64,000 nucleotides of DNA from an uncultured Pseudomonadota bacterium (GCA_963711075.1 CAVQCW010000008.1:37136-101135), one strand, 5' to 3'. Counted from the first letter of the stretch, positions 15,313 through 38,570 are shown. Notes: generated from the letters alone by a model not told the origin. Program-made: numbers and translations.

Positions 15313-15539
15313 GCTCAGTTCACCGATTGCGATTGGGTTGTGTTGATGCGGATGCGAAAAGCGGCGCTTGGTCGCCAAGCGTCGGCGCGCCGACGCCGAG
15401 CTGATAAATTCGATTTTCAGCGGACGGACGGCGCGAAAAATTCCCAAGTGCCGGGGGAAATACCACAAACCAACGGAAAAGTTCCCCACGCAAACAAGAA
15501 AGGCGGCTTGCGCCGCCCATCTCGGAGGTTCCGTCGGCG

Positions 15540-18967: not shown

Positions 18968-19579
18968 ATGACCTTGAACATCCGCGACGTCCGCGAACAC
19001 GAGATGGACGCCGTACTCGCGCTCAACAATGCCGCAGGCGCTTCCATCCTGGCGTTGGACATGGCGCAATTGCGCGTACTGGCGGAGCAGGCCGCGTATT
19101 TCAGGGTCGCTGAAGCCGATGGCCAACTCGCCGGGTTTCTCGTGGCGCTGCGCGAAGATGCCAATTACACCAGTCCAAATTTCCGCTGGTTCCGCGAACG
19201 CTACGAACAATTCCTCTACATCGACCGCATCGTGATCGCGCGCGCCTATCGGCGCATCGGTCTGGGCCGCGTGTTCTACGCCGATGTAACGAGCTTCGCC
19301 GAAGTGCGCGTGCCCCTGCTTGCCTGTGAGGTTTTCCTGGAACCGCGCGACGATGTTGCCGTGCTGTTTCATGGCACCTACGGCTTCCAGGAAGTCGGCC
19401 AGCAATTGATGGCAGAAGTGAATCGCCACGTGGCCTTGCTGGCCAAGGAGCTGCCCAGCTTCGCCTACGTGCGCGACACCTATCTGCTCGGACCTTCGGC
19501 CGGCCTGCCCGCTCAACCATGGCTTGCCGAACGCGCTACTGCTGACCCGCAACGCGCGCGCGCGGCGGGCGAAAACTAG
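18968..19579 (+). CDS. GNAT family N-acetyltransferase
   Basis: Acetyl-CoA binding block IVIARAYRRIGLGRVFY in a roughly 200-aa protein. Confidence 0.75.
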   Translation: MTLNIRDVREHEMDAVLALNNAAGASILALDMAQLRVLAEQAAYFRVAEADGQLAGFLVALREDANYTSPNFRWFRERYEQFLYIDRIVIARAYRRIGLGRVFYADVTSFAEVRVPLLACEVFLEPRDDVAVLFHGTYGFQEVGQQLMAEVNRHVALLAKELPSFAYVRDTYLLGPSAGLPAQPWLAERATADPQRARAAGEN

Positions 19580-19592
19580 AACTCAGGCACGG

Positions 19593-20315
19593 ATGCGCCC
19601 CGATTCCGGAAACTCCATCGAACCGATTTTCGAGCTCAAATTCGGCCAGGTCGGCATTGCGAATCTGCGCCTGCACGTGTGCGATGCGCAAGCGCTGCAC
19701 GACGAAATCCAGCGCCGGGTACGGACCGCGCCGACGCTGTTCGAGCGCGCGCCTCTCGTTATCGATCTGGGCAGCCTGGCGAGGCTGCCCGACATCGTTG
19801 CAGCGCGCGCATTGCTGGACGCAGTGCACAGTGCCGGCATGCTCCCGGTCGGCCTTGCCTATGGCTCACCCGAAAACGAACACCTCGCGCGCGAACTCAA
19901 CCTGCCCTTGTTCGCGAAATTCCGCGCCGCCGCATCCAGCGGGGTCGAAAAAGACCCGGCTGCCGCGCATTCCCCGCCGGCGCCGGGTCTGAGTGGCCGG
20001 CATCACGACAAACCGGTGCGTTCCGGGCAGCAGATCTACGCGCAAGGCCGCGATCTCGTCCTCAACGCCACGGTCGGCAACGGCGCGGAAGTTATCGCTG
20101 ACGGCTCGATCCACGTATACGGCAGACTCAGCGGCCGCGCCATGGCGGGTGCGCAGGGTGAAACGGGCGCGCGCATTTACTGCATGGATTTCCAGGCCGA
20201 ACTGCTGTCGATCGCGGGCTGCTACCGTGTGTTCGAGGAATTTCCGGCCGAACTGCACGGCAAACCCGTGCAGGCATGGCTGGAAGGAGAAAAGCTGCTT
20301 GTTGCCGCATTGTAA
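19593..20315 (+). CDS. minC: Septum site-determining protein MinC
   Basis: FELKFGQV...LVIDL N-domain and a C-terminal beta-helix (RSGQQIYAQGRDLVLNATVGNGAEVIADGSIHVYGRLSGRA). It precedes minD and minE. Confidence 0.9.
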   Translation: MRPDSGNSIEPIFELKFGQVGIANLRLHVCDAQALHDEIQRRVRTAPTLFERAPLVIDLGSLARLPDIVAARALLDAVHSAGMLPVGLAYGSPENEHLARELNLPLFAKFRAAASSGVEKDPAAAHSPPAPGLSGRHHDKPVRSGQQIYAQGRDLVLNATVGNGAEVIADGSIHVYGRLSGRAMAGAQGETGARIYCMDFQAELLSIAGCYRVFEEFPAELHGKPVQAWLEGEKLLVAAL

Positions 20316-20354
20316 ATATCTAGACCTTGCAACAAAACCATCGGAGATCGCATC

Positions 20355-21167
20355 TTGACTGAATTCATCGTCGTCACTTCCGGCAAGGGCGGAGTCGGCA
20401 AGACCACCACCAGTGCCAGCGTTGCCGTAGGCCTTGCCTGTCACGGCAGGAAAGTCGCCGTCATCGACTTCGACGTCGGTCTGCGCAACCTCGATCTGAT
20501 CATGGGCTGCGAGCGCCGCGTGGTCTATGATTTCGTCAACGTCATCCAGGGCGATTGCACGCTCAGACAGGCGTTGATCAAGGACAAGCGCCACGAGAAC
20601 CTTTTTGTGCTCGCCGCATCGCAGACCCGCGACAAGGAAGCGTTAACCCAGGACGGCGTCGAACGCGTGCTCAATGAATTGCGCGACGACGGCTTCGACT
20701 ACGTGGTGTGCGATTCTCCTGCCGGAATCGAAAAAGGTGCATTCCTGGCGATGTATTTCGCCGATCGCGCGATCGTCGTGGTCAATCCCGAAGTTTCGTC
20801 GGTGCGCGACTCGGATCGCATTCTCGGCCTGCTCGCGAGCAAGACCCGGCGTGCCGAACTCGGCGCCGCCCCGATCGAACAGCACTTGTTGCTGACCCGC
20901 TACAACCCGGCGCGCGTTGCCGATGGCGACATGCTCAGCATCGACGACGTCAAGGAAATCCTCGGCATCGAAATCGTCGGCGTGATTCCCGAATCCGAAG
21001 GCGTATTGAGCGCGTCTAACGCCGGCGTGCCGGTGATACTCGACGAGGAATCCAACGCCGGGCACGCCTATGCCGACGCCGTCGCCCGGTTGCTCGGCGA
21101 ACAGCGGCCGATGCGCTTCCTCGACGCACCGAAGAAGGGTTTTCTCTCACGCATGTTCGGAGGCTGA
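20355..21167 (+). CDS. minD: Septum site-determining ATPase MinD (TTG start)
   Basis: Deviant Walker [11 protein letters not shown], and a C-terminal amphipathic helix [11 protein letters not shown]. Confidence 0.95.
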
Positions 21168-23572: not shown

Positions 23573-23625
23573 GCGTGCGTATCGCCTTGACACTTGCACA
23601 GGTCAATGCGCTACTATTCGTCAAC

Positions 23626-23682
23626 ACTCGGGAGATGGCATTCCTCCCCGAACCGCCGCAAGGCTGATGATGCCTACCCGAG
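23626..23682 (+). promoter_or_regulatory. Fluoride riboswitch (crcB-motif RNA)
   Basis: GGGAGAUGGCAUUCCUCCCCGAACCGCCGCAAGGCUGAUGAUGCCUAC matches the conserved crcB-motif blocks GGnGAUGG..UUCCUCC..AACCGCC..GCUGAUGAUGCCUAC. It lies about 95 nt upstream of crcB. Confidence 0.9.
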
Positions 23683-23773
23683 CCGGGCAACCCGGCGCTC
23701 GTAGGTGTCGCCGCAAGACGACAAGCCTGCGCGCGCGTGGTTCCCGCACCGAACAAGGACGCGAGGAACCGAC

Positions 23774-24166
23774 ATGACACTCATTGCATTTCTGGCCGTA
23801 GGCGGGGGCGCTTTTTTCGGTGCCGGCCTTCGCTATGCGCTGGGTCTGGCATTAAATCCGGTTTTTCCGACGTTGCCGCTCGGCACGCTCGCCGCGAACC
23901 TTCTCGGTGGCCTGATCATGGGCCTGGCAATGGCGCTGTTCGCGCAATTCCAGGCGTTGCCGCCGGAACTGCGGCTGTTTCTCGCCACCGGATTTCTCGG
24001 CGGACTGACCACGTTCTCAACTTTCTCCGCGGAAACGCTGACACTAATGCTGCGACATGAATATCTATGGGCACTGGCACTGATCAGTGCGCACCTGATC
24101 GGCACGCTGAGCATGACGTTTCTCGGTTTCATCCTGGTTCAAGGCATCGCGAGGGCATGGGCATGA
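23774..24166 (+). CDS. crcB: Fluoride channel CrcB/Fluc
   Basis: 130 aa, four TM helices. Conserved GG..GA..RY near the N-terminus and GFLGGLTTFSTF in TM3. Confidence 0.93.
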   Translation: MTLIAFLAVGGGAFFGAGLRYALGLALNPVFPTLPLGTLAANLLGGLIMGLAMALFAQFQALPPELRLFLATGFLGGLTTFSTFSAETLTLMLRHEYLWALALISAHLIGTLSMTFLGFILVQGIARAWA

Positions 24167-24492
24167 CCAGTCAGCAAGGCGCATACCTGCGCTTTTTCGT
24201 ACACGAGAATCGTCGCCATCACGGCGTCCTGCTCTACGAGTGGTTGCTCGAGCAGGCAAAGAAGATGGGAATCCACGGCGGCAGCGCGTTTCGCGCGATC
24301 GCCGGTTTCGGTCGACACGGCGTCATGCACGAGCAGCACTTCTTCGAGCTGGCCGGCGACCTGACTGTGCGCATCGATTTCGTCGTCGGCGCCGACGAGG
24401 CGGATCGCCTGCTCAAATTTGTCGCCGACGAAAATTTGTCGATTTTCTATGCCCGGCTGGCGACGGAATTCGGCACCACCGGAGTGGACTGA
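24163..24492 (+). CDS. DUF190 (PII-like) protein, a common crcB neighbour
   Basis: LRFFVHENRRHHG.LLYEWLLEQAKKMGIHGGSAFRAIAGFG pattern. ATGA overlap with crcB. Confidence 0.8.
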   Translation: MTSQQGAYLRFFVHENRRHHGVLLYEWLLEQAKKMGIHGGSAFRAIAGFGRHGVMHEQHFFELAGDLTVRIDFVVGADEADRLLKFVADENLSIFYARLATEFGTTGVD

Positions 24493-24496
24493 ATCC

Positions 24497-25438
24497 ATGC
24501 GCGATATTCTGGCCCAGATCGCGCAGGTACTCACGGTATTGCTGCTGGCGCCGCTGCTGCAGGGATTCATCCATCGCTACGAAGAACGTGTGCAGCGCAG
24601 CCGCGGCCCGTCGCTGCTGCAGCCATATCGCGACCTTATCAAATTGTTGCGCAAGCAACTGGTCGTTCCGGAATCGGCGACCTGGGTATTCTGGACCGCT
24701 CCGATCGTCGCGTTTACGGCAATGCTGACCGTGCCGATCCTGATTCCGGTACTGACCAATTACCCGCTGCCGTTGTCGGACATGGGCGACATCCTCGGCG
24801 GTGGACTGATCCTTACGGTCGGCAGCTTCTTCGTGAATCTGGCCGCTCTCGACAGCGGCAGCGCATACGGTGGCATCGGCAGCAGCCGCACGGTCATGCT
24901 CACGATCCTGGCCGAGCCGACGCTGATTCTGGTATTCGTGGGGATCACGCTGATGGCGCAATCGATGCTGCCCTTCGTTGTCAATCATCTACTGGTCGCG
25001 CAGCCGGCGGTGTACTGGAATCCGACTCATCTGTTTCTGGTGATGGCGTTTTTCGTGCTGCTGCTGGTTGAAACCGATCGCCTGCCGATCCACTCGAGCA
25101 CGCATATCGAGGTGTACATGATCGAGGAAGCGCGCATCCTCGAATACTCCGGGCCGCTGCTGGCGTTGCTGAAGTGGGCATCGGCGATGAAGCAGTTCAT
25201 TCTCTACACGATCTTCGTCAACGTGCTGCTGTTGCCGTGGGGGCTATCGAAAACCGGCAGCGTGCCTGGCATCGGTGGCAGCGCGCTGGCGTTGCTGATG
25301 AAATTGGCATTGGTCGCGCTGGCCGTGATCGGCGTGGAGACGATGCAGTCGCGCCTGCGCTTTTACCGCTACCAGGAACCCCTGGCCGCGGCATTTCTTT
25401 TCGCCGTGCTCGCGGTAATCGCCAATCAAATTCGCTGA
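24497..25438 (+). CDS. HyfC/HycD-like (NuoH-like) membrane subunit
   Basis: Aligns by eye to E. coli HyfC blocks (RGP..Q.YRD..KL; EYSG..LAL.KW). It starts 4 nt after the DUF190 stop. Confidence 0.88.
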   Translation: MRDILAQIAQVLTVLLLAPLLQGFIHRYEERVQRSRGPSLLQPYRDLIKLLRKQLVVPESATWVFWTAPIVAFTAMLTVPILIPVLTNYPLPLSDMGDILGGGLILTVGSFFVNLAALDSGSAYGGIGSSRTVMLTILAEPTLILVFVGITLMAQSMLPFVVNHLLVAQPAVYWNPTHLFLVMAFFVLLLVETDRLPIHSSTHIEVYMIEEARILEYSGPLLALLKWASAMKQFILYTIFVNVLLLPWGLSKTGSVPGIGGSALALLMKLALVALAVIGVETMQSRLRFYRYQEPLAAAFLFAVLAVIANQIR

Positions 25439-25455: not shown

Positions 25456-26136
25456 ATGCTCGCCGCGAATCTCGATCCACTTGCCGCTTCGCTGTTCAGT
25501 CTGCTTGCCATTGGCTGCCTGGTGCTGGCGTTCGTGATGCTCGGCTCGCGCTGGCTCAAGGACTATCTGTATGCGTTCGCCGCGCAGTCCTGGCTGATCG
25601 CGCTGTTGTCGGCAGCGATCGGCTATTACGGTCACTACCGCGAGCTCTATGCGATTGCGGTACTGACCGCATTGTTCCGCGGACTGGTGCTGCCGTGGCT
25701 CGTGCTGCGCATTTTGCGGCGCATGCACGTGACCCGCGAATTGCATCCCATACTGCAACCATCGACCAGCCTGCTGATCGGCGCGGTCGCTGTGGTGTTT
25801 GCCTTGATCGTCGCCACGCGCATCTCTGCGTCTTTGGGCCTGACCCAGAACATTGTCGTGCTGGCACTGACCGTGATGCTGTCGATGAAAATGATCGGCT
25901 TGCTGATTCTGGCTTTGCGTCGAGAAGCAATCAGCCAGATTCTCGGCATCATGCTGCTGGAAAACGGCATATTTCTCGGCTCGCAGATTCTGGTGCCGGG
26001 CATGCCGATGCTGATCGAACTGGTGCTGCTGTTCGATCTGCTGGTCGCCGTCGCCTGTTTCGGCGTGCTCGTGCGCTACCTGATCACGCATGTCGGCAGT
26101 ACCAGCAGTCGGGAATTGCAGAGGCTGACCGGATGA
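25456..26136 (+). CDS. HyfE-like (NuoK-related) membrane subunit
   Basis: ILGIMLLENGIFLGS and the C-terminal ..LQRLTG mirror HyfE IFGYCLMENGSHL and ..LTALKG. Confidence 0.85.
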   Translation: MLAANLDPLAASLFSLLAIGCLVLAFVMLGSRWLKDYLYAFAAQSWLIALLSAAIGYYGHYRELYAIAVLTALFRGLVLPWLVLRILRRMHVTRELHPILQPSTSLLIGAVAVVFALIVATRISASLGLTQNIVVLALTVMLSMKMIGLLILALRREAISQILGIMLLENGIFLGSQILVPGMPMLIELVLLFDLLVAVACFGVLVRYLITHVGSTSSRELQRLTG

Positions 26137-27596
26137 TGATCGATCCGCGCCTGCTCGTCGTATTGATCGCACCACTCGTCGCGATCGTCGTTGCGCTGGC
26201 ATCGCGCCGCGCGCGCGTGGCCGAATGGGCGAACCTGCTCGCCGCCATTGCGGTGTTCATCGCCGCGCTGTCGCTGCCGTTTGTCGCCGCGTCGCCGCGG
26301 ACTTTCGCGGCAGGATATCTTTTTCTCGACGAACTCGGTGCCTGGGTACTGCTGTGCGTGGCCGTGGTTTACCTGCTCGCCTCGTTGCACGCGGTCGGCT
26401 ACATGCGCAGCGACCCGACGCACGACCGGCGCCTGCCGCAGTTCTACGCGCTTTTCGCGGCCTTCGCCCTGACCATGCTGTTCGCGCCGCTGGTCGCCAA
26501 TTTGGGGGTGTACTGGATCGCGATCGAACTGACCACGCTGGTCAGCACGTTCCTGGTCGGCTTCGAGCGCCGCGCGACGAGCATGGAAGCAGCATGGAAA
26601 TACATCATCATCGTCTCGGCCGGTATCAGTCTGGCCCTGCTCGGCACCATAGTGCTGTACTGGGGCGGCAGTCTGGTGCTCGGACCAACCTACGATCTCA
26701 CCTGGCAGTCGTTGGCGGCAGTCGCGCCGCGCATGAATCCAATGTTGTTGCGGCTGGGATTTTTGCTGATGCTGATCGGCTACGCAGTCAAGGTCGGTCT
26801 TGCGCCCATGCACAGTTGGCTGCCGGACGCCCACAGCGAAGCGCCCGCTCCGGTGTCCGCGATGCTTTCCGGTGCGCTTCTCAATACGGCGATGCTCGGC
26901 ATCGTGCGCACGCTGGCCGCGACCGACGCAGCCGCCGCCGGCACCATGCCGCACGCGGCATTGATCGTGCTCGGCGTGCTTTCGATTCTGATCGGTGCGC
27001 TGTTCATCGTGCGCCAACGCGACATCAAACGGCTGATGGCCTATTCCAGCGTCGAACACATGGGCATCATCGCCTTGGGTTTCGGTTTCGGCGGCGTATT
27101 CGGCGTCGCTGGCGCCCTTTACCAGATGCTCAACCACTCATTGAACAAGTCGCTGCTGTTTTTCGGCGCCGGCAATGTCATGCGCCGATACGGAACCACG
27201 AAGATCGGCGAGATCCGGGACGTGTTGTCGCAGTTTCCGGTATCCGGCCCGCTGTGGCTGATGGGTGCGATCGCGATCACGGGCGCGCCGCCATTCGGCC
27301 CGTTTCTTGGCGAGCTGAGCGTCCTGCGCGCCGGCTGGAGCGGCATCTGTCTGTGGGCTTCGGCAACCATGCTGATTGCGCTGATCGTGATCTTCATCGG
27401 CTTCCTGAATCATTTTCGCGTCATGTATTTCGGCGAGCCGTTATCCGATCCGCCAACCGGGATACGCACGCCGGCTATCAGCATCTTGCCAATGTGGATC
27501 GCGGCGATCGCGTTGCTGGTGTTCGGACTGTGGTGGCCACAAAGCCTGCGCGGTTTGTTCGGCAACATCGCCGCCAGTCTGGGAGCCACGCCATGA
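26133..27596 (+). CDS. HyfF/HyfD-like antiporter-type (NuoN/M-like) membrane subunit
   Basis: Proton-conducting membrane transporter blocks (GLAPMHSWLPDAHSEAP, MAYSSVEHMG). ATGA overlap with the previous gene. Confidence 0.88.
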   Translation: MMIDPRLLVVLIAPLVAIVVALASRRARVAEWANLLAAIAVFIAALSLPFVAASPRTFAAGYLFLDELGAWVLLCVAVVYLLASLHAVGYMRSDPTHDRRLPQFYALFAAFALTMLFAPLVANLGVYWIAIELTTLVSTFLVGFERRATSMEAAWKYIIIVSAGISLALLGTIVLYWGGSLVLGPTYDLTWQSLAAVAPRMNPMLLRLGFLLMLIGYAVKVGLAPMHSWLPDAHSEAPAPVSAMLSGALLNTAMLGIVRTLAATDAAAAGTMPHAALIVLGVLSILIGALFIVRQRDIKRLMAYSSVEHMGIIALGFGFGGVFGVAGALYQMLNHSLNKSLLFFGAGNVMRRYGTTKIGEIRDVLSQFPVSGPLWLMGAIAITGAPPFGPFLGELSVLRAGWSGICLWASATMLIALIVIFIGFLNHFRVMYFGEPLSDPPTGIRTPAISILPMWIAAIALLVFGLWWPQSLRGLFGNIAASLGATP

Positions 27597-29074
27597 TGCG
27601 CGGAACCAACGAACGCGATTGCAACGCCGGGCAATTGCGCGCCGCGGTTGCGGATTTGATCGCTGCGGGCGGTCGCATGCAGATGGCGTGGTGCTGGTTT
27701 CCGGAAAAATCAAAATCCGAAGTTTGCTATCTGGCCGCGCCGGGCGCACGCCGGCCACTGGAACTATGGCGTTGTCGCGTCGACAATGGAATTTTGCCGA
27801 GTCTGGCCGGTCTGGTTCCGTTGCTGGGTTGGTACGAACGCGAAATCACCGATCTATGCGGTGTGCGTTTCGACGGTCATCCGGAACCGCGTCCGCTGCT
27901 GTTCGATGGGCTCGACCATGCGCCGATGGATCCGGCACATGTGTATGCTGCGGCCAGCGGAAATGCCCGCGCACCTGCCTTCGTCCCCGAAGTACTGGGC
28001 GACGATGTCCAACAATTGCCGTTCGGTCCCGTGCGCGCCGATGTAGTCGAGTCGGCGCAGTTTCAATTCTTCTATCTTGGCGAACACATCCTGCGTTACC
28101 AGCCGCGACTGTTTTTCAAGCACCGCGGCATGGAACAGCGCTTCACGGGTCTCGCCCCAAGCGCCGGCACAGCGTTCGCCGAGCGCGTTTCCGGCATCGG
28201 AAGCGTGGCTCACGCGCTGGCCTATTGCCAGGCGATCGAGGCCGCGGCAGGTTGCGGCGTGCCCGTTCGTGCGCGCCGCATTCGCGTGCTGCTCGCAGAA
28301 CTCGAACGGCTATACAACCATCTGCATTACTTCGGCCATCTGGCCGCCACGACCACACTCAAGGCAGGTCACGCGGAGGGAACGCTGCTCGAAGAAGGCA
28401 TCAAGCAGCTCATCGCACGCCTGTGTGGCAGCCGCTTCGGGCGCAATCTGCTGACACCGGGAGGATTGCGTCGCGATGTCGTCATCGCTGCGGATCTTTC
28501 CGCGCGGCTCGATGAGCTGGAAAAATCCGTACGCTGTTATCTGGAACAACTCGAACGCACGACGAGTTATCTGGATCGCCTCATCACGACCGGCCCGCTA
28601 CCGCGGCAGACTGCGTTCGACCAGGGCGCGACCGGCCCGGTCGAGCGCGCCTCGGGGTTGGATCGCGACATGCGACGCGATCATCCCTACGCCGCATACG
28701 ATGAACTGAAAATTGCGGTCCCCGTTCGCGATGACGGCGACGCCTACGCGCGAGCGCGAGTACGCATGGCAGAAATCATCGAGATTTTTGCGGCCCTGCG
28801 CCAGATCCTGGCGCGTCTGCAACCAGGCGACGTTCGTGTTGACTGCACGCCGCCACCCGATTCCGAAGGATTGGGCTGGGCCGAATCGCCACGTGGCTCG
28901 CTCTACTACGCCGTGCATGTGGACGCCGCGCAACGTCTGGCGCGAGTCAAGATCAAATCGCCGTCGTATTCCAACTGGCGCGTATTCCCGTTCACGGTGC
29001 ATGACACCAACATGATGGATTACGCGATCAACGAAGCCAGTTTCGGTTTGTCCATTGCCGGTTGTGATCGCTGA
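27593..29074 (+). CDS. HycE/HyfG-like fused NuoC-NuoD-type 'large subunit' lacking the Ni-Fe cysteines
   Basis: NuoC-like N-domain (LLGWYEREITDLCGVRFDGHPEPRPLL). The large-subunit core has the L1 position reading RVSGIGSVAH and the C-terminus reading LSIAGCDR-stop. ATGA overlap with the previous gene. Confidence 0.88.
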   Translation: MMRGTNERDCNAGQLRAAVADLIAAGGRMQMAWCWFPEKSKSEVCYLAAPGARRPLELWRCRVDNGILPSLAGLVPLLGWYEREITDLCGVRFDGHPEPRPLLFDGLDHAPMDPAHVYAAASGNARAPAFVPEVLGDDVQQLPFGPVRADVVESAQFQFFYLGEHILRYQPRLFFKHRGMEQRFTGLAPSAGTAFAERVSGIGSVAHALAYCQAIEAAAGCGVPVRARRIRVLLAELERLYNHLHYFGHLAATTTLKAGHAEGTLLEEGIKQLIARLCGSRFGRNLLTPGGLRRDVVIAADLSARLDELEKSVRCYLEQLERTTSYLDRLITTGPLPRQTAFDQGATGPVERASGLDRDMRRDHPYAAYDELKIAVPVRDDGDAYARARVRMAEIIEIFAALRQILARLQPGDVRVDCTPPPDSEGLGWAESPRGSLYYAVHVDAAQRLARVKIKSPSYSNWRVFPFTVHDTNMMDYAINEASFGLSIAGCDR

Positions 29075-29123
29075 TGAACACAATGCAATTTTCCCAGACA
29101 AGATTCGGTTCCGGAGTTCACCG

Positions 29124-29924
29124 ATGCCCATCTGGACGCTGATTGGACTGGCCAAAGGCAGCGCAACTACCGCGTGGCCTGCGCATGACGGCGACGACGG
29201 GCAGACCGGAGTGTCCGGCATGCCGCGCATCACTGGCGAGCGTTGCGTCGTGGATTGCCGCGCCTGCGCCGAGGTCTGTCCGACACGCGCCATCGGCCTT
29301 GATGCCGCCGGAAATTTGCAGACTCTCGATTATGGACGCTGCATCGCGTGCCAGTTGTGTGTGCAGGCGTGTCCTTCGGGCAGGCTGCAAGCCAGCAACG
29401 ACTGGGCGTGCGGCGTGCGCGATCGCGGCGAACTGCACTGGAGCGATGCGACGACTTCGCCCGCGGCAGAGCAGTTGCGCAAGCACATCGAGCGCAGTTT
29501 CAAATGCAGTCTGCATATTCGGCATGTCGATGCCGGCTCGTGCAACGGTTGCGAATCGGAATTGCAGGCGTTGAACAATCCATACTACAACCTGCATCGG
29601 CTCGGCATTTTCTTCACGGCATCGCCACGCTTCGCTGATCTGCTGCTGGTCACCGGCCCGGTCACGCACGCGATGCGAGAACCGCTGCTGGCAACCTACG
29701 AAGCCATGGCTGAGCCACGCCTGGTAATGGCGACGGGAACCTGCGCCGTTTCCGGCGGCATCGCTGCAGGCGGATACGCATGTGGCAGCGGACTCGACGG
29801 CGTGTTGCCGGTGGATCTGTGGCTGCCGGGCTGCCCGCCGAATCCGGCGGCAATCATCGAAGGATTGCTGGTGCTGCTCGATCGCGCGAAGCCGCGCCTG
29901 CGCGGAGGCCGCTTCGATGAATGA
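29124..29924 (+). CDS. Fusion of a 2x[4Fe-4S] ferredoxin (HycF/HyfH/NuoI-like) with a hydrogenase small subunit (HycG/HyfI/NuoB-like)
   Basis: N-half: CVVDCRACAEVCP and CIACQLCVQACP. C-half: DAGSCNGCE, SPRFADLLLVTGPVT, GTCAVSGG, LPGCPPNP (the four NuoB-type Cys are retained). GGAG lies 7 nt upstream of the ATG at 29124. Confidence 0.88.
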   Translation: MPIWTLIGLAKGSATTAWPAHDGDDGQTGVSGMPRITGERCVVDCRACAEVCPTRAIGLDAAGNLQTLDYGRCIACQLCVQACPSGRLQASNDWACGVRDRGELHWSDATTSPAAEQLRKHIERSFKCSLHIRHVDAGSCNGCESELQALNNPYYNLHRLGIFFTASPRFADLLLVTGPVTHAMREPLLATYEAMAEPRLVMATGTCAVSGGIAAGGYACGSGLDGVLPVDLWLPGCPPNPAAIIEGLLVLLDRAKPRLRGGRFDE

Positions 29925-31884
29925 AATGATCGGAGTCGCTCTCGCCTGCTGGCTGCTCGCGCTGGTTCTTGCCATCGCGGGACGCGCGTTGACGCCTGCG
30001 CGATGGCTGCTGGCCGCAGGTGCCGCAGCGATGATTGCGTGCGCGTTGCTGACACTACCCGGCTCGACGGCAACGCTTTCGCTGGGCTTCGGCCCCGGCG
30101 CGCACGGCAGCGTGTTTCGACTCGATGCTGCGGCGTTGTGGTTGTCGCTGTTCGGCTTCATGCCCGCGCTGGCGGCGTGCTTGCTGGGTACGCCGGCAAG
30201 CGAAAAACGCGGCTGGATCGCTGGTGCAGCGCTGGCATCAATCGCTGCACTTGGCGTATTCGGCTTGCAAGACGCCGCATCGTTTCGGGTCGCCTGGGAA
30301 ATCATGAGTCTGGGCGGTGCGTGCATGTTGCTTGGCGAAAGATTCGATGGCCCGCAATCGGGTGCATCCAGTTTGTTCATGCTTGGCTTGCTCGAAGTCG
30401 GAGCTGTCGCCCTGATCGCGTCCATGCTGATCCTCGGTCATGCCTCAGGCACGTTTGCCTTCGCGGCTTTTCCGTCGGCAGCGGCGAGCCTGTCGCCGGG
30501 GTTGCGCCTTGGCGTCGGCATGCTGTTGCTGGTCGGTTTCGGCGCCAAGCTGGGCCTGTTGCCTTTTTACGAATGGCTGCCGCGCGCGTACGCATCGGGC
30601 AGCGGTGCCAGTGGCGCAATGTTGTCCGGCGTCATTTTGAATGCGGCGTATTTCGCGCTTGCGCGCGGATTCACGCAGTGGCTTCCGGCGGATTTCGCGC
30701 TCGGCGCAATCGTCATCGCGCTGGCCATCGTGAGCGCGATTCTGGCCATTCTTTACGCGTTCCAGGAAGAAGACTGGCGCGAATTGCTGAGTTTTTCGAC
30801 GGCGGAAAATGCCTGCATCGCGATGGCCCTGCTCGGCGCATCGATGTTGTTCCGAAGTCGCGGTCTGGAAACCTTCGCGGCACTGGCCTGGGTGGTTGCA
30901 CTGTTGCATCTTGGCGCACACGCGCTGGCGAAAGGCGCTCTGTTTTGTGCCGCCGACGGCATCTACCGCGCCAGTGGCAGCTATCACATCACCCAATGCG
31001 GTTGGTTCAAGCGCAGCCCGCTGCTGTTCGGCATCGGCGTCGTATTCGCCGGCATGAGTCTGGCGGCGATGCCGCCGCAGGCCGGATTCGTCAGCGAGTG
31101 GTTCGCCTTCCAGACCCTGTTCCAGGGATTTCATCTTCCCGGAATGGGCGGGCGCCTGGTGCTGGCGCTGGCCGGCGCCGGACTCGCTCTGACCGCCGCG
31201 ATCGCATTCGCCACGTTCGTCAAAGTCGTTGGCATTGGCGCACAAGGCGCAAGCACGCATGAGGGTACGCGTGTACCCGGCGCGCACGCGTTTGCAACGG
31301 GCGTTCTCGGTTTGCTGGTGCTGGCGCTTGCAGTCGGCATGCCATGGTGGCTGCACTATCTGGACCGCGCCGCCAGTCTTGCTTTCGGCGCGCACACGGC
31401 CACTGCAATGCACGATGGGCCGATCCTCGTACCGCTCTCCAAATTCGCTTTCATCTCGCCGACGTTGCTGATTATTGTTTGTCCGCTGCTCGCGATCGTG
31501 CCGATCGCGCTGTTGTGGTGGTCCATGCGCAGACATCCGGCACGCGGCGCACCGGTCTGGTACGGCGGGTTTGCGCGCGATTCGACGCGGGTGGCGACGA
31601 CCGCACTGACTTTTTCCAATGCGATGCGCGTGTTCTACAGTTTTATCTATCGCCCAACGGTCGATGTCGCGCACGAACATAGTGAGCGCGAATATTTCGT
31701 GCACCGATTGCGCTTGCGTCACGGTGTCGCAGCGTTGTTTGAACCGCTGCTGTTTGGCCCCTTGCGGCGCGGCGTGGACGCGCTCGCCGGCGCCTTGCAA
31801 GGCATGCAATCCGGACAGATGAACTTCTATCTTGCCCTGATCGCACTGCTGCTGGTTGTCGCGTTGTCCATCGCGATCTGGTAG
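29917..31884 (+). CDS. HyfB/HycC-like (NuoL-like) antiporter-type membrane subunit
   Basis: 655 aa, polytopic, with blocks FGAKLGLLPFYEWLPRAY and AENACIAMALLG typical of HyfB/HycC. 8-nt overlap with the previous gene. Confidence 0.85.
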   Translation: MNEMIGVALACWLLALVLAIAGRALTPARWLLAAGAAAMIACALLTLPGSTATLSLGFGPGAHGSVFRLDAAALWLSLFGFMPALAACLLGTPASEKRGWIAGAALASIAALGVFGLQDAASFRVAWEIMSLGGACMLLGERFDGPQSGASSLFMLGLLEVGAVALIASMLILGHASGTFAFAAFPSAAASLSPGLRLGVGMLLLVGFGAKLGLLPFYEWLPRAYASGSGASGAMLSGVILNAAYFALARGFTQWLPADFALGAIVIALAIVSAILAILYAFQEEDWRELLSFSTAENACIAMALLGASMLFRSRGLETFAALAWVVALLHLGAHALAKGALFCAADGIYRASGSYHITQCGWFKRSPLLFGIGVVFAGMSLAAMPPQAGFVSEWFAFQTLFQGFHLPGMGGRLVLALAGAGLALTAAIAFATFVKVVGIGAQGASTHEGTRVPGAHAFATGVLGLLVLALAVGMPWWLHYLDRAASLAFGAHTATAMHDGPILVPLSKFAFISPTLLIIVCPLLAIVPIALLWWSMRRHPARGAPVWYGGFARDSTRVATTALTFSNAMRVFYSFIYRPTVDVAHEHSEREYFVHRLRLRHGVAALFEPLLFGPLRRGVDALAGALQGMQSGQMNFYLALIALLLVVALSIAIW

Positions 31885-31934: not shown

Positions 31935-33068
31935 ATGTCCGATACCAAGGAAATGGAATCGATGTCGCACTCCAGAGTTTCGCAACTGCTTGCGCAAGCC
32001 GGGCTCACCCTGAACGGTGGTGCCCCGTACGATCCGCAAATCCATAACGATCATTTTTACGCCCGCGTCGTCACCCATGGCTCAATCGGGCTCGGCGAGT
32101 CCTACATGGACGAGTGGTGGGACGTGCGCGATCTCGACGCCATGCTGTATCGCATTCTCGCCGCAGGACTGGATCGAAAGGTCCACGCCATCGACGATGC
32201 GTGGCTGTGGCTCAAGTCGACATTTCTGAACCTGCAACGTGGGCACCGCGCCTATGTAATCGGCGAACATCACTACGACATCGGCAACGATCTTTTCGAG
32301 GCAATGCTCGGCAAGCGCCTCGTATACAGCTGCGCGTATTGGAACACCGCAACAAATCTCGACGACGCCCAGGAAGCCAAGCTCGATCTGGTTTGCCGAA
32401 AACTCGGACTGAAAGCCGGTATGCGCGTGCTCGACATCGGTTGCGGCTGGGGCGAGGCATTGAAATATGCCGCCGAGCGTTATGGCGTATCCGGCGTCGG
32501 CATCACGGTATCGCAGGAACAGGCGGAATTCGCCCGTGATCTGTGCAAAAACCTGCCGATCGAGATTCGCGTACAGGACTACCGCGAACTTGACGAAAAA
32601 TTCGATCGCAGCTTTTCCATCGGCATGTTCGAACACGTCGGCGTGAAAAACTATCGCACATATTTCGAGATGGTGCGCCGTTGCCTGAACGACGATGGCC
32701 TGTCGCTGCTGCATTGCATCGGCTCCAACGTGTCCACAAACCGTACCGATCCGTGGATCGCAAAATACATATTCCCCAACTCGATGCTGCCGTCCGCAGT
32801 GCAGATCGCCGACGCGCGCGAAGACCTGTTCGTGATCGAGGACTGGCACAATTTCGGCGCCGACTACGACGCGACGTTGATGGCCTGGCGAGACAATTTC
32901 GATAGCGCATGGCCACGACTGCGCGACACCTACGGCGAACGCTTCCGGCGCATGTGGCACTTCTACCTGTCCGCCTCGGCTGCCGTGTTCCGTGCACGTC
33001 GCGACCAATTGTGGCAACTGGTTTTGAGCCCGAACGGGGTGCCGGGCGGATACCGCGCACCGCGATGA
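31935..33068 (+). CDS. cfa: Cyclopropane-fatty-acyl-phospholipid synthase
   Basis: GSIGLGESYMDEWWD and the SAM motif VLDIGCGWGE, with length and blocks as in E. coli Cfa. Confidence 0.92.
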   Translation: MSDTKEMESMSHSRVSQLLAQAGLTLNGGAPYDPQIHNDHFYARVVTHGSIGLGESYMDEWWDVRDLDAMLYRILAAGLDRKVHAIDDAWLWLKSTFLNLQRGHRAYVIGEHHYDIGNDLFEAMLGKRLVYSCAYWNTATNLDDAQEAKLDLVCRKLGLKAGMRVLDIGCGWGEALKYAAERYGVSGVGITVSQEQAEFARDLCKNLPIEIRVQDYRELDEKFDRSFSIGMFEHVGVKNYRTYFEMVRRCLNDDGLSLLHCIGSNVSTNRTDPWIAKYIFPNSMLPSAVQIADAREDLFVIEDWHNFGADYDATLMAWRDNFDSAWPRLRDTYGERFRRMWHFYLSASAAVFRARRDQLWQLVLSPNGVPGGYRAPR

Positions 33069-33084
33069 TGCGGCACAACGTCGC

Positions 33085-33750
33085 ATGAATCCGGTGCCAA
33101 CCGAGTACACCGCGATCATATCGACACCAGCGCCACGGGGTAGAATCAGGGCATTTGAAAATCGGGACCACCACGTGACCATCAGTGTCGAACCAACCGA
33201 GGATCTGCTGCGCCGCATTCGCACCGGTGAATCCGCGGCCAAGCAGGCCTTGTACGAACGTTGCCTGCCGTTGTTGCGACGCTGGGCGCACGGGCGCCTG
33301 CCGCACTACGCGCGCGATATCGCCGATACCGACGATCTGGTCCAGGTGACACTGCTGCGCGCGCTCAATCGTCTGGACGACTTCAACTCCGATGGCGGCA
33401 GCGGCAGTTTTCTCGCGTACCTGCGCCAGATATTGCTCAACGAAGTTCGCGGCGAATTGCGCAAACGCCAGGTTCGTGGCAGCAGGCTCGATATCGACGA
33501 TATGCCTTTGCCCGACGATACCGCTTCCGTCGTCGAACATCTGGTCGGCGAGCAGCGTATCCGCAATTACGAGGCCGCGCTGGGCACGCTGGACCGCGAG
33601 CAACAGGCGCTGATCGTGATGCGCCTGGAATTCGGCATGAGCTATCAGGAAATGGGCATCGAGACCGGTAGTTCGCCGGATGCTGTTCGGATGCGTGTCA
33701 CTCGCGCATTGAAGACTGTTGCCAGTCGCATCGCGACGGACAGAGACTAG
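33085..33750 (+). CDS. ECF-type RNA polymerase sigma-70 family factor
   Basis: Region 2 (DTDDLVQVTLLRALNRLDDF) and region 4 HTH (MRLEFGMSYQEMGIETGSSPDAVRMRVTRAL). The start may be later (GTG 33175). Confidence 0.85.
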   Translation: MNPVPTEYTAIISTPAPRGRIRAFENRDHHVTISVEPTEDLLRRIRTGESAAKQALYERCLPLLRRWAHGRLPHYARDIADTDDLVQVTLLRALNRLDDFNSDGGSGSFLAYLRQILLNEVRGELRKRQVRGSRLDIDDMPLPDDTASVVEHLVGEQRIRNYEAALGTLDREQQALIVMRLEFGMSYQEMGIETGSSPDAVRMRVTRALKTVASRIATDRD

Positions 33751-33754
33751 ACTC

Positions 33755-35359
33755 ATGCCCGGCAAATCCGGAACAAGAAAACAAATCGATGAAGCCCTGT
33801 CGGCCATCGCGGACGGAGCTCCATTGGCCTGGAGAGAGATCGAATCCGGATTGGACGATCCAGCCCAGGTCGAAGTGTTGCGTTTGCTTGACGACGTCGC
33901 CGGCGCGTATCGCCGGGAGCGCAACGCGACTTCCGCAGCGCCGAATCATGCGATGTTCCGCTGGGGTCCGCTTGAAGTGGAAGCGATGATTGGCGAAGGC
34001 AGCTACGGCAATGTGTACCGCGCATTCGACCCGTGGCTGGGTCGACACGTCGCCCTGAAGCTTGCGCAACTGGCGACGGGTACCGGCAGCGGGCTCGACG
34101 AGGCACGCCGCCTGGCGCGCCTGCGCCATCGCAACGTGCTGCATGTTTACGGCTGCGCGGTGCACGACGGTCGCTCCGGACTGTGGAGCGAGCTGATCGA
34201 AGGTCGCACCCTGGCTGCGGTGGTTGCAAGCGATGGCGCATTGAGCGTCGAAGAAACCATGCGCATTGGCCGCGATCTGGCCAATGCATTGGCCGCTGTC
34301 CACGCTGCAGGCCTCGTACACGGCGATGTGAAAGCGGACAACGTGATGCGTGAAAGCGGCGGTCGCATCGTGTTGATGGATTTCGGTGCCGGCGGCGACC
34401 AGCGCTTGCTCGCCAGCCGCCAACTGATTTCCGGCACACCGGCCTACCTGTCGCCGGAAGTGCTTGACGGCGCGCCGCTGAGTATACAAAGCGACATTTA
34501 CGCGTTCGGCGTGCTGCTGTTTTTCCTGCTCAGCGGGCGTTATCCATACGCGCATTCCGATTTCGGCGCATTGCGCGACGCGCAGGCAGCCGGCGAGCGA
34601 GCGGAACTGCGCGCGTTGCGCCCGGATCTCGACCCGGATCTTGGCGCGCTGGTCGAAGCGTGCACGGCCACGGATCCCGCTCTGCGGCCGCAGAGCGCAT
34701 CTGCGCTTGCCGCCCGATTGACTCGGCTGGCCCAGCCGCAACCGCACGCACTTTCGCATCCACGCCGCTGGATCGGTGTGGCGGCCTGCGCCGCCGCCGT
34801 CGCCGCGTGCACGCTGCTGGCATGGCCGCAGCTGTTTCCGCCGGCCTGGGCCAGCACGATTCAATTCCTGCGCGTTGAACCCGGAGGCAATGTTCCACTC
34901 GACGCAAATTCGAGCCTGCGCGTCGGCGACCGGATACGCCTGCTCGCGAGCAGCACGCGCGACACGTATCTGTACGTTCTCAACGAAGACGCCGCCGGCA
35001 ACGCGACGGTATTGTTCCCGTTGAACGCTACGGCACGCAATCCACTGCATGCCGGCGTGCAACTGCAGCTGCCCGGCGGCACGGGATCGACGCAGGCGTA
35101 TGAAGTCACTGCCGATTCCGCACGCGAGGAATTTCTCGTGGTGGCGTCGCTGGCGCCGCTGCCGGATCTGGAAGGAGAACTCAACAGTTGGCGTCACGCG
35201 GCAACTGCCGACACAGCACCGACACGCGGAGTTGGCGCAATCGTGGATGTATCCGCGCCGCTGCTGCGTGGCGCGCATCTTCACGCGCTGCTCGATCGAC
35301 TCCGTCAGGACCCGGCCCACGTGCGCGTCTGGCAATACAGCTTTACGCACCGCAACTGA
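33755..35359 (+). CDS. Membrane Ser/Thr protein kinase with C-terminal periplasmic DUF4384-like domain
   Basis: Hanks motifs GEGSYGNVY, VALK, HGDVKADNVM, DFG, GTPAYLSPE. TM helix WIGVAACAAAVAACTLLAW. C-terminal VGDRIRLLASSTRDTYLYVLNEDAAGNATVLFP is DUF4384-like. Confidence 0.88.
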   Translation: MPGKSGTRKQIDEALSAIADGAPLAWREIESGLDDPAQVEVLRLLDDVAGAYRRERNATSAAPNHAMFRWGPLEVEAMIGEGSYGNVYRAFDPWLGRHVALKLAQLATGTGSGLDEARRLARLRHRNVLHVYGCAVHDGRSGLWSELIEGRTLAAVVASDGALSVEETMRIGRDLANALAAVHAAGLVHGDVKADNVMRESGGRIVLMDFGAGGDQRLLASRQLISGTPAYLSPEVLDGAPLSIQSDIYAFGVLLFFLLSGRYPYAHSDFGALRDAQAAGERAELRALRPDLDPDLGALVEACTATDPALRPQSASALAARLTRLAQPQPHALSHPRRWIGVAACAAAVAACTLLAWPQLFPPAWASTIQFLRVEPGGNVPLDANSSLRVGDRIRLLASSTRDTYLYVLNEDAAGNATVLFPLNATARNPLHAGVQLQLPGGTGSTQAYEVTADSAREEFLVVASLAPLPDLEGELNSWRHAATADTAPTRGVGAIVDVSAPLLRGAHLHALLDRLRQDPAHVRVWQYSFTHRN

Positions 35360-35455: not shown

Positions 35456-38400
35456 CTACGACAGCGCGTTGCGGCGCCGCTGTGCGCGCTTCTCCTTGCG
35501 GCGTTTCGAGCGACGGGCGAAGACGAGGTAAATCGCCGGGGTCGAGAGCAAGGTGAGACTCTGCGAAAAAACCAGTCCGCCGAGCATGGCGATACCGAGC
35601 GGGCGGCGCAACGCCGCGCCCGTGCCAATGCCGACGACCAACGGCACCGAAGCCAGAATGGCGACCATGGTGGTCATCATGATCGGGCGAAAGCGTGCCA
35701 GGCAAGCTTCACGCACGGCCTCGAGCGGTGCCTTGCCTTCGCGTTCGGCGACCAGCGCGAAGTCGATCATCATGATCGCGTTTTTCTTCACCAGACCGAT
35801 CAGCAGCACCAGCGCCATGATCGCGACGATCGACAGTGGCGTGCCAGTTGCCAGCAACGCCAGCAGCGCGCCGACTCCGGCAGCAGGCAAAGTCGAGAGA
35901 ATCGTCACCGGGTGAATCAGGTTCTCGTACAACATGCCCAGCACCAGATACACCGCAATGATCGCGCCGATCAGCAGCAGCGGCATTTGCGTCATCTGCT
36001 GCTGGAAACGTCGGAACGAGTCGCCGAAGCCGAGCGTGATATCGCCGGGCATGCGCATGTCGCTGATGGTCTTTCTTATTTGCTCGGTAGCCTCGCCCAT
36101 GCTCACGCCTGGCGTGAGGTTGAAACTCAGCGACATGCTGGTCATCTGGTTGGTGTGGCTGATCTGACTCGGCGCGATGGTGGATTGCTGCTGCGCGATC
36201 TCACTGATCGGAATCATCTGTCCGTTGCCGGATCGCACGTGGATGGTTTCCAGCGCAGCGGGTGACGACGCCTGCGATGGCAGTGCCGTCAGCACCACCT
36301 GATATTGGTTGGTATCGGAGTAGATGGTCGAGATCGTGCGCTGCCCGAACGCGTTGTAGAGCGCATCATCCACATCCGCCATCGACACGCCCAGTCGCGC
36401 TGCCTTGGCGCGATCGACCACCATGTTCTGCAAGAGCGAGGCATCATCCAGATCTGTGCCGACTTCCGTGAACATCGGATTCTTCTGCAATTGCGCCTGC
36501 AACTTCGGCAACCACTCCTCGATCTCTGTGGCACTGTTGCCCTGCAGCTCCACGCTGTACTGGCCACCCTGACTGGTGCCGCCCGAGCCGCTGGGCAGGT
36601 CTTCATGCGCGCGCAGTCGCACATCCAGATCGGGATAGCGCGCCACTTTGGCGGACAGCCGCGCCACGACCAATTGCGTGGATTGCTTGCGACCTTCGCC
36701 CAGCGGTTTCAGCTGGATGCTGATCCATCCGCTGGCGCCGCGTCGACCGGTACCGATCGACGCGCCGACATATTCGACGTCCGGATCGTCGCGCAACGCC
36801 TTCATGATCGTGCTGGTGCGAGTTTCGAGATCGGCGAACGACATCGTCATGCTGGCGCTGGCACGACCCCAGATCAGGCCGCTGTCCTGCGGCGGGAAGC
36901 TGGTACCGGGAACTTCATGAAACAGGAAAATCGTGAGGATCAACAGCGGCAGCGGTGACCATGCCATCAGCCTGTGGTGCTTGTGCAGTGTCCAGTCCAG
37001 CATGCGCGTGTACGCGGCGAGCATGCCGGCGTGGAAACGATCCAGCGCCCGTCCGAACCGCGACGGGACCTCATCGCGCACGGTATGGTGACGCAGGTAG
37101 AGGCCGCAAAGCGTCGGCGTCAATGTGAGCGAGACCAGCATCGACACGAAGATGGCGGCGACCAGCGTCACCGTGAACTCGCGGAAGAACATGCCGATCA
37201 CGCCCGGCGCAAACAGGATCGGAGTGAATACCGCAATGAGCGAAGCCGTGATCGCGATAATGGTGAAACCGATCTCCTTGGCACCCGCGAGCGCTGCCTG
37301 CATCCGCGTTTGTCCCTCGTCCAGATGCCGGATGATGTTCTCGATCACGACGATGGCGTCATCGACCACGAACGTCAGCGCGATCACCAGCGCCAGCAGC
37401 GACAGGTTGTCCAGCGTGTAACCCATCACATACATCACGCCAAAGGCGCCGCACAACGACAACGGTACCGCCGCCGCTGCAATCAGTGTCGGCGCCATGC
37501 GGCGCAGGAACAATGCCATCGTAAGCACCACCATCATCAGACTGATCAGCAACGTGATCTGCACGTCGTCGACGGAGTCGCGGATGGTTGGTGTACCGTC
37601 AAAATACGGCGTCAATTGCGTTCCCGGAGGGAGCAACCCGCGCAGACCGGGCAATTCCGCCTTGATCGCATCTACCGTCTGAATCACGTTGGCATCGGAG
37701 CGCTTGAAAATCTGCAACTGGATTGAGCGCTTGCCGTTGAAGTAGGCGGCCTGGAAACTGTCCTGCGCGCCCTGGTACACGTTGGCGACGTCGCGCAGAT
37801 AGATGGGCGTGCCGGCATTATTGGCGATGACCAGGTCGGCAAAATCGCGCGCCGTGTGCAACTGGTCGGTTGCGGATATCGCGGTCGCGGTCTTGCCGTC
37901 GCTGAGCATGCCTTGCGGCGATCGGACATTCGCTGCGGTGACCGCATTGCGAATCTGGTTGGACGAAAGGCCCAGGGCTTCGAGCTTGTGCAGATCCACG
38001 TCCACGCGCACCGCAGGTTGGGCGCTGCCGGAAACCTCCACCGACGCCACACCCGGCAACTGGCTCAGTCGCGGCTGCAGCAAGGTGTTGGCCGCGTCGT
38101 AAAGTTCGGACAACGGCTGCGTGTCGGAAGTGAGCGCCAGCTCGATCGCCGGATCGTCGTTAGGATTGGCCTTGTGCCACTGCGGCATCTGCAATCCGGC
38201 GGGCAGATCGGGCACGGCAGCGTTCACCGCCGCGTCGACCTGCTGCGCGGCAGAGTCCAGATTCACATCGGAATCGAAGAAGAGGATGACGAAGCCGCTG
38301 CCGTTGGAGCTGCGCGAGCGCATCATCTCTATGCCCGGCGTCTGACCCAGATGACGTTCCAGCGGCGCGATGACCGTGGTCGACATCGTGTCGGCGTTGG

Positions 38401-38560: not shown

Positions 38561-38570
38561 GCTGCGCCAA

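Follow-up and report, generated by a model that had tools for sequence, protein, structure and literature searches.

Here we describe a gene cluster in a 64,000-nucleotide (nt) stretch of DNA from an uncultured Pseudomonadota bacterium that is Rudaea-like and belongs to the Rhodanobacteraceae (GCA_963711075.1, CAVQCW010000008.1:37136-101135), referred to below, at its full length, as the window. The cluster comprises crcB, a DUF190 gene and six genes resembling subunits of the Escherichia coli formate hydrogenlyase (FHL) complexes Hyf and Hyc, all on the same strand and behind a fluoride riboswitch (Table 1). Among them is the gene for a NuoC-NuoD/HycE-like large subunit of 493 amino acids (aa), which an earlier note, made from the sequence alone, had described as a "hydrogenase large subunit" that lost its Ni-Fe cysteine ligands, of the energy-converting hydrogenase related (Ehr) type. 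Genes were called using Pfam, comparison with the E. coli Hyf/Hyc counterparts and a reading of the gene gaps. That this complex is not a hydrogenase and that it belongs to the fluoride regulon are, taken as these two parts alone, conclusions in which we place high confidence.

A fluoride riboswitch heads the predicted operon

The riboswitch aptamer matches the crcB motif (RF01734) over its full length (1-64/64) with 54.3 bits, against a gathering score of 34 (E = 2.7e-12), and is the only Rfam match in the whole window. It lies 90 nt upstream of crcB, on the same strand, and scores 59 bits with a covariance model of our own (described below). A hairpin downstream of the aptamer overlaps its 3' CCUAC. 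Just upstream of the riboswitch we noted a weak promoter candidate with a perfect -35 element, TTGACA, and a 19-nt spacer, which is outside our scan criterion of 16-18 nt; the consensus scan itself returned no sigma-70 promoter, and intrinsic terminators were not in excess.

The genes that follow are tightly packed, with intergenic gaps of -20 to +17 nt. The crcB stop codon overlaps the DUF190 start (ATGA), indicating translational coupling, and DUF190 is separated from the NuoH-like gene by 4 nt. We read this arrangement as one predicted operon, running from the fluoride riboswitch through crcB and DUF190 to the six Hyf-like genes. Because this behavior is established for the riboswitch class, the binding of fluoride to the aptamer should switch the operon on. 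The earlier note had stated that the substrate of the complex is unknown, which understates the case: an inducing signal can be inferred, as the predicted operon also contains the fluoride riboswitch, crcB and DUF190, ~4 kb upstream of the large-subunit gene.

Table 1. Coordinates of the riboswitch, the candidate promoter and the genes of the locus, counted from the first nucleotide of the window
Feature	Position	Strand	Basis
Promoter-like TTGACA-N19-TACTAT, weak candidate	23587..23617	+	read from sequence, just upstream of riboswitch
Fluoride riboswitch aptamer (crcB motif, RF01734)	23622..23683	+	Rfam cmscan
crcB (Fluc fluoride channel), first operon gene	23774..24166	+	Pfam CRCB 6.9e-26
DUF190 (P-II-like, COG1993)	24163..24492	+	Pfam DUF190 4.1e-19
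NuoH/HycD-like membrane subunit (EhrB-like)	24497..25438	+	Pfam NADHdh 3e-34; 32% to E. coli HycD
HyfE-like small membrane subunit (EhrC-like)	25456..26136	+	32% to HyfE over the C-terminal 90 aa; weak Oxidored_q2
HyfF/NuoM-N-like antiporter subunit (EhrD-like)	26133..27596	+	Pfam Proton_antipo_M 3.6e-52; 43% to HyfF
Cys-less NuoC-NuoD/HycE-like large subunit (EhrL-like)	27593..29074	+	translation, Pfam, alignments, AlphaFold2 (AF2)
2x[4Fe-4S] ferredoxin (HycF/NuoI-like) + NuoB/HycG-like fusion (EhrS-like)	29055..29924	+	Fer4 families, Oxidored_q6 7.9e-29; 41% to HyfI
HyfB/NuoL-like antiporter subunit (EhrA-like), last core gene	29917..31884	+	Proton_antipo_M 4.2e-27; 29% to HyfB (577 aa)
cfa (cyclopropane-fatty-acyl-phospholipid synthase)	31935..33068	+	Pfam CMAS 2.3e-86

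The large subunit has lost all four Ni-Fe ligands

The large subunits of group-4 [NiFe] hydrogenases hold their metal site through two motifs, L1 (RxCGxCxxxH) and L2 (DPCxxCxxR), each of which supplies two cysteine ligands; neither motif is present in the large subunit described here. At the L1 position (R198-H207, nt 28184-28213) the protein reads RVSGIGSVAH, which is paired by a phmmer search of the Protein Data Bank (PDB) with RVCGICGFAH of HycE. Its C-terminus (G485-R493, nt 29045-29071) reads GLSIAGCDR, followed directly by the stop codon, and in a MAFFT alignment with HycE, HyfG and NuoCD of E. coli (from MG1655) the segment SFGLSIAGCDR pairs with SLDPCYSCTDR. Relative to HycE, the changes are C241 to S, C244 to G, C531 to S and C534 to G. 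The sole neighboring cysteine, C491, is off register by one position in the alignment with HycE, HyfG and NuoCD, and no conservation of the ligands in a shifted register was found there. The protein stops at the Arg that matches R537 of HycE, the position at which NuoCD ends too, and it carries 0 residues past this Arg as compared with 32 in both HycE and HyfG, such that the extension for a HycI-type protease, a feature of the Hyc/Hyf subtype, is missing. The GP.H..EP loop is diverged, with its Glu retained in the alignments. The earlier note had read all of this correctly: the loss of the four ligands with its coordinates, the out-of-register cysteine, the end at the cleavage-site Arg and the diverged GP.H..EP block, to which only the retained Glu has to be added.

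In line with this loss, which the earlier note had linked to an absence of hyp, hycI and fdhF from the window, tblastn searches with E. coli queries for HypA-F, HycI, HycH, HyfJ and FdhF returned no match in the window and 84 related loci (~1.6 Mb), and the HycB and HyfA queries matched the fused Fer4 domain only.

The overall fold of the protein is that of its relatives. Pfam assigns it Complex1_30kDa, NiFeSe_Hases (the first 75 positions only) and Complex1_49kDa, which is the domain order of a group-4 large subunit (NuoC-like followed by NuoD-like). Among solved structures, E. coli HycE (7z0s_E, E = 1e-45, phmmer against the PDB) is the closest in sequence, ahead of Nqo4 of Thermus, NuoCD of Aquifex and E. 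coli, and MbhL of Pyrococcus. The structure model that had been proposed as a check was built with AF2 (predicted local distance difference test 83.5, predicted template modeling score 0.88); its top fold match in the PDB is again HycE 7z0s_E, with a template modeling (TM) score of 0.85, and fused NuoCD comes next. Alignments and fold thus agree with the view that the protein is a Cys-less relative of the group-4 hydrogenases and complex I and not a [NiFe] hydrogenase.

The altered motifs are strikingly constant. RVSG[VI]GS.AH and SFGL[TS][IV]AGCDR were both kept in 120 of the 120 closest database homologues (58-100% identity), one of which, recorded from a metagenome-assembled genome of Rudaea sp., is 100% identical to the large subunit; in a 47-sequence alignment of large subunits, S200, H207, G490, C491 and R493 are invariant. 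This conservation argues for a selected state rather than decay, and the large subunit appears to be under purifying selection in its Cys-less form. Given the conservation of these motifs and of the cluster cysteines (see below) among the homologues, we rejected the reading of the gene as a pseudogene or relic. The protein is probably not a [NiFe] hydrogenase, its [NiFe] site having been permanently lost, as judged from these alignments. In the source annotations the homologues appear as "nickel-dependent hydrogenase large subunit" or as "formate hydrogenlyase subunit 5".

With regard to the gene model, a 949-aa open reading frame (ORF) in the large-subunit frame (26225-29074, +) and several long antisense ORFs were put down to the 62% G+C content and dismissed; the large subunit in fact starts at 27593, where its start codon overlaps the stop of the preceding gene.

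The remaining subunits retain an electron wire and a membrane arm

The small subunit is a fusion of a ferredoxin-type domain and a NuoB-type domain, with an uncertain start codon (TTG 29055, GTG 29064 or ATG 29124). It contains 12 Fe-S cysteines, 8 of the ferredoxin type and 4 of the NuoB type. The four NuoB-domain cysteines pair with the ligands of NuoB, HycG and HyfI and are invariant in 74 of 74 homologues, which bears out the claim of the earlier note that the NuoB-like partner keeps its cluster ligands; four of the Fer4 cysteines are kept in 74/74 and the other four in 73/74. By this pattern, the complex is predicted to retain a wire of three [4Fe-4S] clusters.

As for the membrane arm, the Glu of transmembrane helix 5 (TM5), the Lys of TM7 and the Glu of TM12 are present in both the HyfF-like and the HyfB-like subunits. 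The operon encodes no NuoEFG NADH-input module.

The fluoride link is conserved across related loci

To place the locus in context, we compared it with the best 80 of 438 related stretches (one genome per GTDB species, 58-84% identity; L001-L080). These loci come from Gammaproteobacteria, Alphaproteobacteria and Acidobacteria, and include Rhodanobacter, Dyella, Frateuria, Nitrobacter, Ancylobacter and Martelella. In the window and in 80/80 relatives the six-gene core is syntenic, with the order B-C-D-L-S-A (in the lettering of the ehr genes) and the Fer4-NuoB fusion. Since matching to a strict regular expression recovered only ~30 riboswitch sites, we used instead a covariance model built from 30 aptamers, with which the window and the 80 loci were searched and whose matches were cross-checked with nhmmer and Rfam. 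It identified 153 aptamers in 1.56 Mb.

The 5' end of the NuoH-like gene was intact in 71 loci, which were evaluated for the riboswitch. A same-strand riboswitch was found less than 1.5 kb upstream of this gene in all of them (71/71), and at a distance of no more than 200 nt in 63; the weakest of these matches were re-confirmed with Rfam's own model, which also bore out the association in 11 further loci. In at least 30 loci crcB, which is often predicted to share a transcript with the cluster, comes directly after the HyfB-like gene; in 4, as in the window, it directly precedes the first gene. These crcB counts are lower bounds, owing to a longest-ORF rule by which some frames after hyfB were called wrongly in GC-rich DNA. 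Typically, the aptamer's 3' strand also takes part in a hairpin formed with the sequence behind it, and about one third of these hairpins are trailed by a U run, an arrangement that fits an ON switch.

Beyond these loci, a search of 1.84 billion cluster representatives revealed that Cys-less large subunits form a very large radiation; a Cys-containing group is interspersed among them in a neighbor-joining tree that is to be read as a rough distance tree only. Among the representatives, the six-gene cluster with an Rfam-grade riboswitch in front recurs at 51%, 48% and 45% identity (L084, L086 and L088, respectively); at 39% (L090) the same cluster is found with no riboswitch within its 279 nt of upstream sequence. 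Six representatives (P0144, P0173, P0259, P0187, P0128 and P0131) were left out of the comparison of gene context, as their contigs were too short.

The cluster also occurs on plasmids. Plasmid records carry the large-subunit gene at 53-55% identity in Burkholderia cenocepacia, B. multivorans and Caballeronia, and the whole operon, fluoride riboswitch included, was confirmed on the B. cenocepacia and Caballeronia plasmids. On a 134-kb conjugative plasmid of clinical B. cenocepacia (NZ_CP073671.1; L099, 93094-112578), seven Rfam-grade riboswitches lie within 19.5 kb, accompanying a pyrophosphatase (PPase), a HAD hydrolase, DUF190, the Cys-less complex, crcB, a histidine phosphatase, a dynamin-family protein and a CLC channel. 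To judge by its gene content, this region appears to be a mobile fluoride-resistance island. DUF190, often a companion of crcB, adjoins crcB or the ehr genes on this plasmid as it does in L084 and L103.

Three control loci were searched for comparison. No fluoride riboswitch was detected at the classical Ehr loci of Cupriavidus metallidurans CH34 (L100) and Rhizobium leguminosarum pRltTA1A (L101), nor at the locus of a Cys-containing group-4 hydrogenase, with hypA, in Azospirillum lipoferum. These controls argue that the fluoride link is a property of this clade and not of Ehr or group-4 enzymes in general.

Several additional observations were made in the related loci. There are up to six fluoride riboswitches per locus among the 80 relatives, and behind the extra ones lie genes for MutS domain V proteins (11), metallophosphoesterases, enolase, universal stress proteins, dihydroxy-acid dehydratase, dynamin-like GTPases and a Na+/H+ exchanger. 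One riboswitch variant (L013, 13-102, +) has a ~35-nt insertion in the P3 loop and scores 30.5 bits with our own model, being below the Rfam gathering threshold. In L009, L011, L012 and L014 (~14220-16140, +) a conserved ORF of ~640 aa (MFSDNHRRYL...) follows the HyfB-like gene; in these Dyella, Frateuria and Rhodanobacter loci it stands where other lineages have crcB.

The locus represents a distinct subfamily of Ehr-like complexes

To our knowledge, Ehr complexes have no known function or substrate; they are placed between membrane-bound hydrogenases and complex I as intermediate forms. We take an Ehr complex to consist of six subunits (NuoL-, NuoH-, HyfE-, NuoM/N-, NuoD- and NuoB-like), and all six are encoded here. 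Gene names follow a study of Methylacidiphilum, in which ehrABCDLS six-gene clusters were given an unknown role, possibly in pH homeostasis (PMC6688271). The classical Ehr loci L100 and L101 share with the present one a Cys-less large subunit without the C-terminal extension and a NuoB-like subunit that keeps its cluster cysteines. Yet the large subunits are only about 32-33% identical, the gene order is A-B-C-D-L-S (hyfB first) and not B-C-D-L-S-A, NuoB is a stand-alone protein of 150-177 aa without the 2x[4Fe-4S] domain fused to it here, and the large subunit ends in NLSY[AS]GHDL instead of GL[ST]IAGCDR. A fluoride riboswitch, which the classical loci lack, heads every evaluable member of this clade. 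Because of the gene order, the added Fer4 domain and the low identity of the large subunit, the locus is best regarded as a distinct subfamily and not as classical Ehr. The Ehr label of the earlier note therefore holds for the subunit composition and the Cys-less large subunit, and does not extend to gene order, the Fer4 fusion or sequence identity.

The closest homologues of each subunit compared are those of E. coli Hyf and Hyc (FHL-2 and FHL-1, the latter PDB 7Z0S), with which the complex shares a large subunit of the fused NuoC-NuoD type. Unlike these complexes, it lacks not only the Ni-Fe cysteines and the maturation peptide but also HyfA/HycB, HyfD, HyfJ/HycH, HycI, FdhF and the hyp genes, and its HyfH-like and HyfI-like parts form one fused protein, whereas they are separate in Hyf. 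With the Q-module of complex I (NuoCD/Nqo4, NuoB, NuoI and NuoH) it shares the fold (TM score ~0.8 to E. coli and Aquifex NuoCD), the C-terminal ...DR at the NuoCD position, the site of an N2-type cluster and the Glu and Lys residues of the antiporter-like subunits; in contrast to complex I, it has neither the NADH-input module nor a NuoA/NuoJ/NuoK set.

The locus likewise resembles known members of the fluoride regulon, having an aptamer above the Rfam gathering score 5' of crcB and, in related loci, fluoride-regulated neighbors that are typical of the regulon (MutS-like proteins, enolase, PPase, HAD, Usp, CLC and a Na+/H+ exchanger). As early as 2010, the crcB motif was described upstream of "genes encoding formate hydrogen lyase" (Weinberg 2010, PMC2864571), and in 2022 formate hydrogenlyase was still given as a common fluoride-riboswitch-associated enzyme (PMC8752731). 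A 2024 review read its presence in the regulon as a shift to anaerobic fermentation (PMC11139923). In contrast to this name, every member examined here encodes a Cys-less, non-hydrogenase complex, and the "formate hydrogenlyase" genes of the fluoride literature are probably not hydrogenase genes and may all belong to this clade. A full-text literature search returned nothing that connects fluoride or riboswitches with complexes of the hydrogenase-4, energy-converting-hydrogenase or NADH-dehydrogenase type.

A putative redox-driven ion pump for fluoride stress

Fluoride enters cells by accumulating as a weak acid (hydrogen fluoride, HF) at low pH, which lowers the cytoplasmic pH and the proton-motive force, and its export by Fluc relies on the electrical gradient, i.e., the membrane potential; Na+/H+ antiporters are frequent in the fluoride-riboswitch regulon (PMC11139923). 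Against this background, we favor, at a little better than even odds (about 0.55), the reading that the locus encodes a fluoride-induced, redox-driven ion pump with Fe-S clusters, serving pH and proton-motive-force homeostasis under HF stress. In such a scheme, HF would diffuse in at low external pH and dissociate in the cytoplasm, and Fluc (CrcB) would release F- down the membrane potential, each cycle leaving one H+ inside and draining the proton-motive force. Electrons, probably from a ferredoxin or flavodoxin-type donor, would reach the exposed Fer4 domain, and an acceptor would bind in the remodeled pocket where the large, NuoB-like and NuoH-like subunits meet. The electron flow would drive outward translocation of H+ (or Na+) by the complex, and the pump would thereby restore both the pH of the cytoplasm and the membrane potential on which fluoride export runs. 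The adjoining cfa would fit a defense against acid and permeability stress.

A number of points weigh against this reading. A sequence shows neither that ions are pumped nor in which direction. Lys of TM8 is replaced by Asn in both antiporter-like subunits, as it also is in E. coli HyfF. The quinone ligands of complex I are missing too: Tyr87 and His38 of Nqo4 (Thermus numbering, our own count from the 2fug_4 alignment), which we take to be the ligands of the quinone head group and which are Tyr and His in E. coli NuoCD as well, are both replaced, with RMDYLHS of Nqo4 (2fug_4) pairing with RVSGIGS (Tyr to Gly) and GPQHPSTHG with GPVRADVVE (His to Val, at a position counted by hand). The loops that line the pocket (residues 138-156 and 489-493) are of low confidence in the AF2 model, such that the content of the pocket is not readable from it. 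The expression platform in the window has no U-rich tail, and the switch may act there on transcription or on translation. Lastly, a general proton pump would not obviously have to be tied solely to fluoride, and the exclusivity of the association hints at a more fluoride-specific role.

Among the other explanations, that of a redox-independent cation/proton antiporter of the Mrp type, with a peripheral arm and Fe-S clusters that would play a structural or regulatory part (as a redox sensor, for example), draws on an Mrp/Hyf-like membrane arm with intact Glu and Lys residues, on the loss of both the NiFe and the quinone ligands, on the lack of a donor module in the operon and on the frequency of Na+/H+ antiporters among the targets of fluoride riboswitches. 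We nevertheless consider it unlikely: the 12 cluster cysteines are near-perfectly conserved in 74 homologues from three proteobacterial classes, and this clade has gained a 2x[4Fe-4S] domain relative to classical Ehr, both of which argue that electron transfer matters. It appears improbable, too, that the complex handles fluoride itself, be it as a redox-driven exporter of F- or HF or through a Ser/Gly/Cys pocket that binds fluoride or a metal-fluoride. crcB, which is usually present too, would then be redundant with a dedicated pump; no sequence feature points to fluoride binding, and we know of no antiporter-like or NuoH-like subunit that carries anions. Still, the riboswitch coupling is exclusive (71/71 loci), the operon is shared with crcB and DUF190, and conservation is high among the pocket residues, of which the out-of-register Cys491 is invariant.

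The absence of the quinone-ligand Tyr and His also bears on the notion of a generic ferredoxin (or NAD(P)H):quinone oxidoreductase, a small complex I whose link to fluoride would be incidental, the riboswitch serving crcB. This very improbable alternative has on its side a complex-I-like architecture and the fact that the window's riboswitch fronts crcB and not the NuoH-like gene directly, but in the 63 loci (of 71) in which the two are no more than 200 nt apart, no crcB intervenes. Hardly credible, finally, is a true formate hydrogenlyase or group-4 [NiFe] hydrogenase, with fluoride shifting the cells to fermentative disposal of formate and H+. All four Ni-Fe ligands are gone and their loss is conserved, the C-terminal extension is absent, and the window and the 84 related loci contain neither a HycB/HyfA or FdhF partner nor hyp or hycI. 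Moreover, the hosts named in the locus titles are mostly aerobic soil Proteobacteria. What speaks for this explanation are the source annotations, which name a hydrogenase or formate hydrogenlyase, the reviews that count formate hydrogen lyase among the fluoride-riboswitch genes, and HycE as the best match by sequence and fold.

The favored reading of a fluoride-induced, redox-driven pump can be taken one step further, to a "fluoride respiratory pump" in which the Ehr-type complex and Fluc together would bring about net extrusion of HF, with F- leaving via the channel and H+ via the complex, while the remodeled Ser/Gly/Cys pocket would carry out a new redox half-reaction. This extension is possible but tentative. 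If true, an Ehr complex would for the first time have a physiological role and an inducer assigned to it, and the "formate hydrogenlyase" entry of the fluoride regulon would be overturned.

The present results correct the formate hydrogenlyase/fermentation reading current since 2010, as in no case examined here can the genes encode a hydrogenase. They concern a large and widespread subfamily, found in Alpha-, Beta- and Gammaproteobacteria and Acidobacteria as well as on a conjugative B. cenocepacia plasmid. With expression tied to a defined chemical signal, fluoride, the function of Ehr complexes becomes testable in cultivable carriers such as Burkholderia, Caballeronia, Rhodanobacter and Dyella. 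The subfamily may also be of relevance to fluoride tolerance in engineering the degradation or synthesis of organofluorines and to life in acidic, fluoride-bearing soils.

Genes adjoining the operon

The cfa gene begins 50 nt after the HyfB-like gene and is possibly co-transcribed with the core operon. It also occurs after the cluster in L001-L003, immediately so in L001, and in several other related loci it lies directly behind a fluoride riboswitch of its own. Cyclopropane-fatty-acid synthesis by cfa protects against acid stress. cfa may belong to the fluoride regulon as well, with a link to membrane permeability.

Farther from the operon, the window carries minC-minD (19524-21167, +), a LuxR-type response regulator with a HisKA_3 kinase (16879-18692, -) and, as judged from translations only, two large RND-type pump genes with a membrane-fusion protein (35456-43114, -). 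Downstream of cfa, an extracytoplasmic function (ECF)-type sigma factor (33085-33750, +) overlaps the start of a Ser/Thr protein kinase with a C-terminal DUF4384 (33719-35359, +), a pairing that is unusual.

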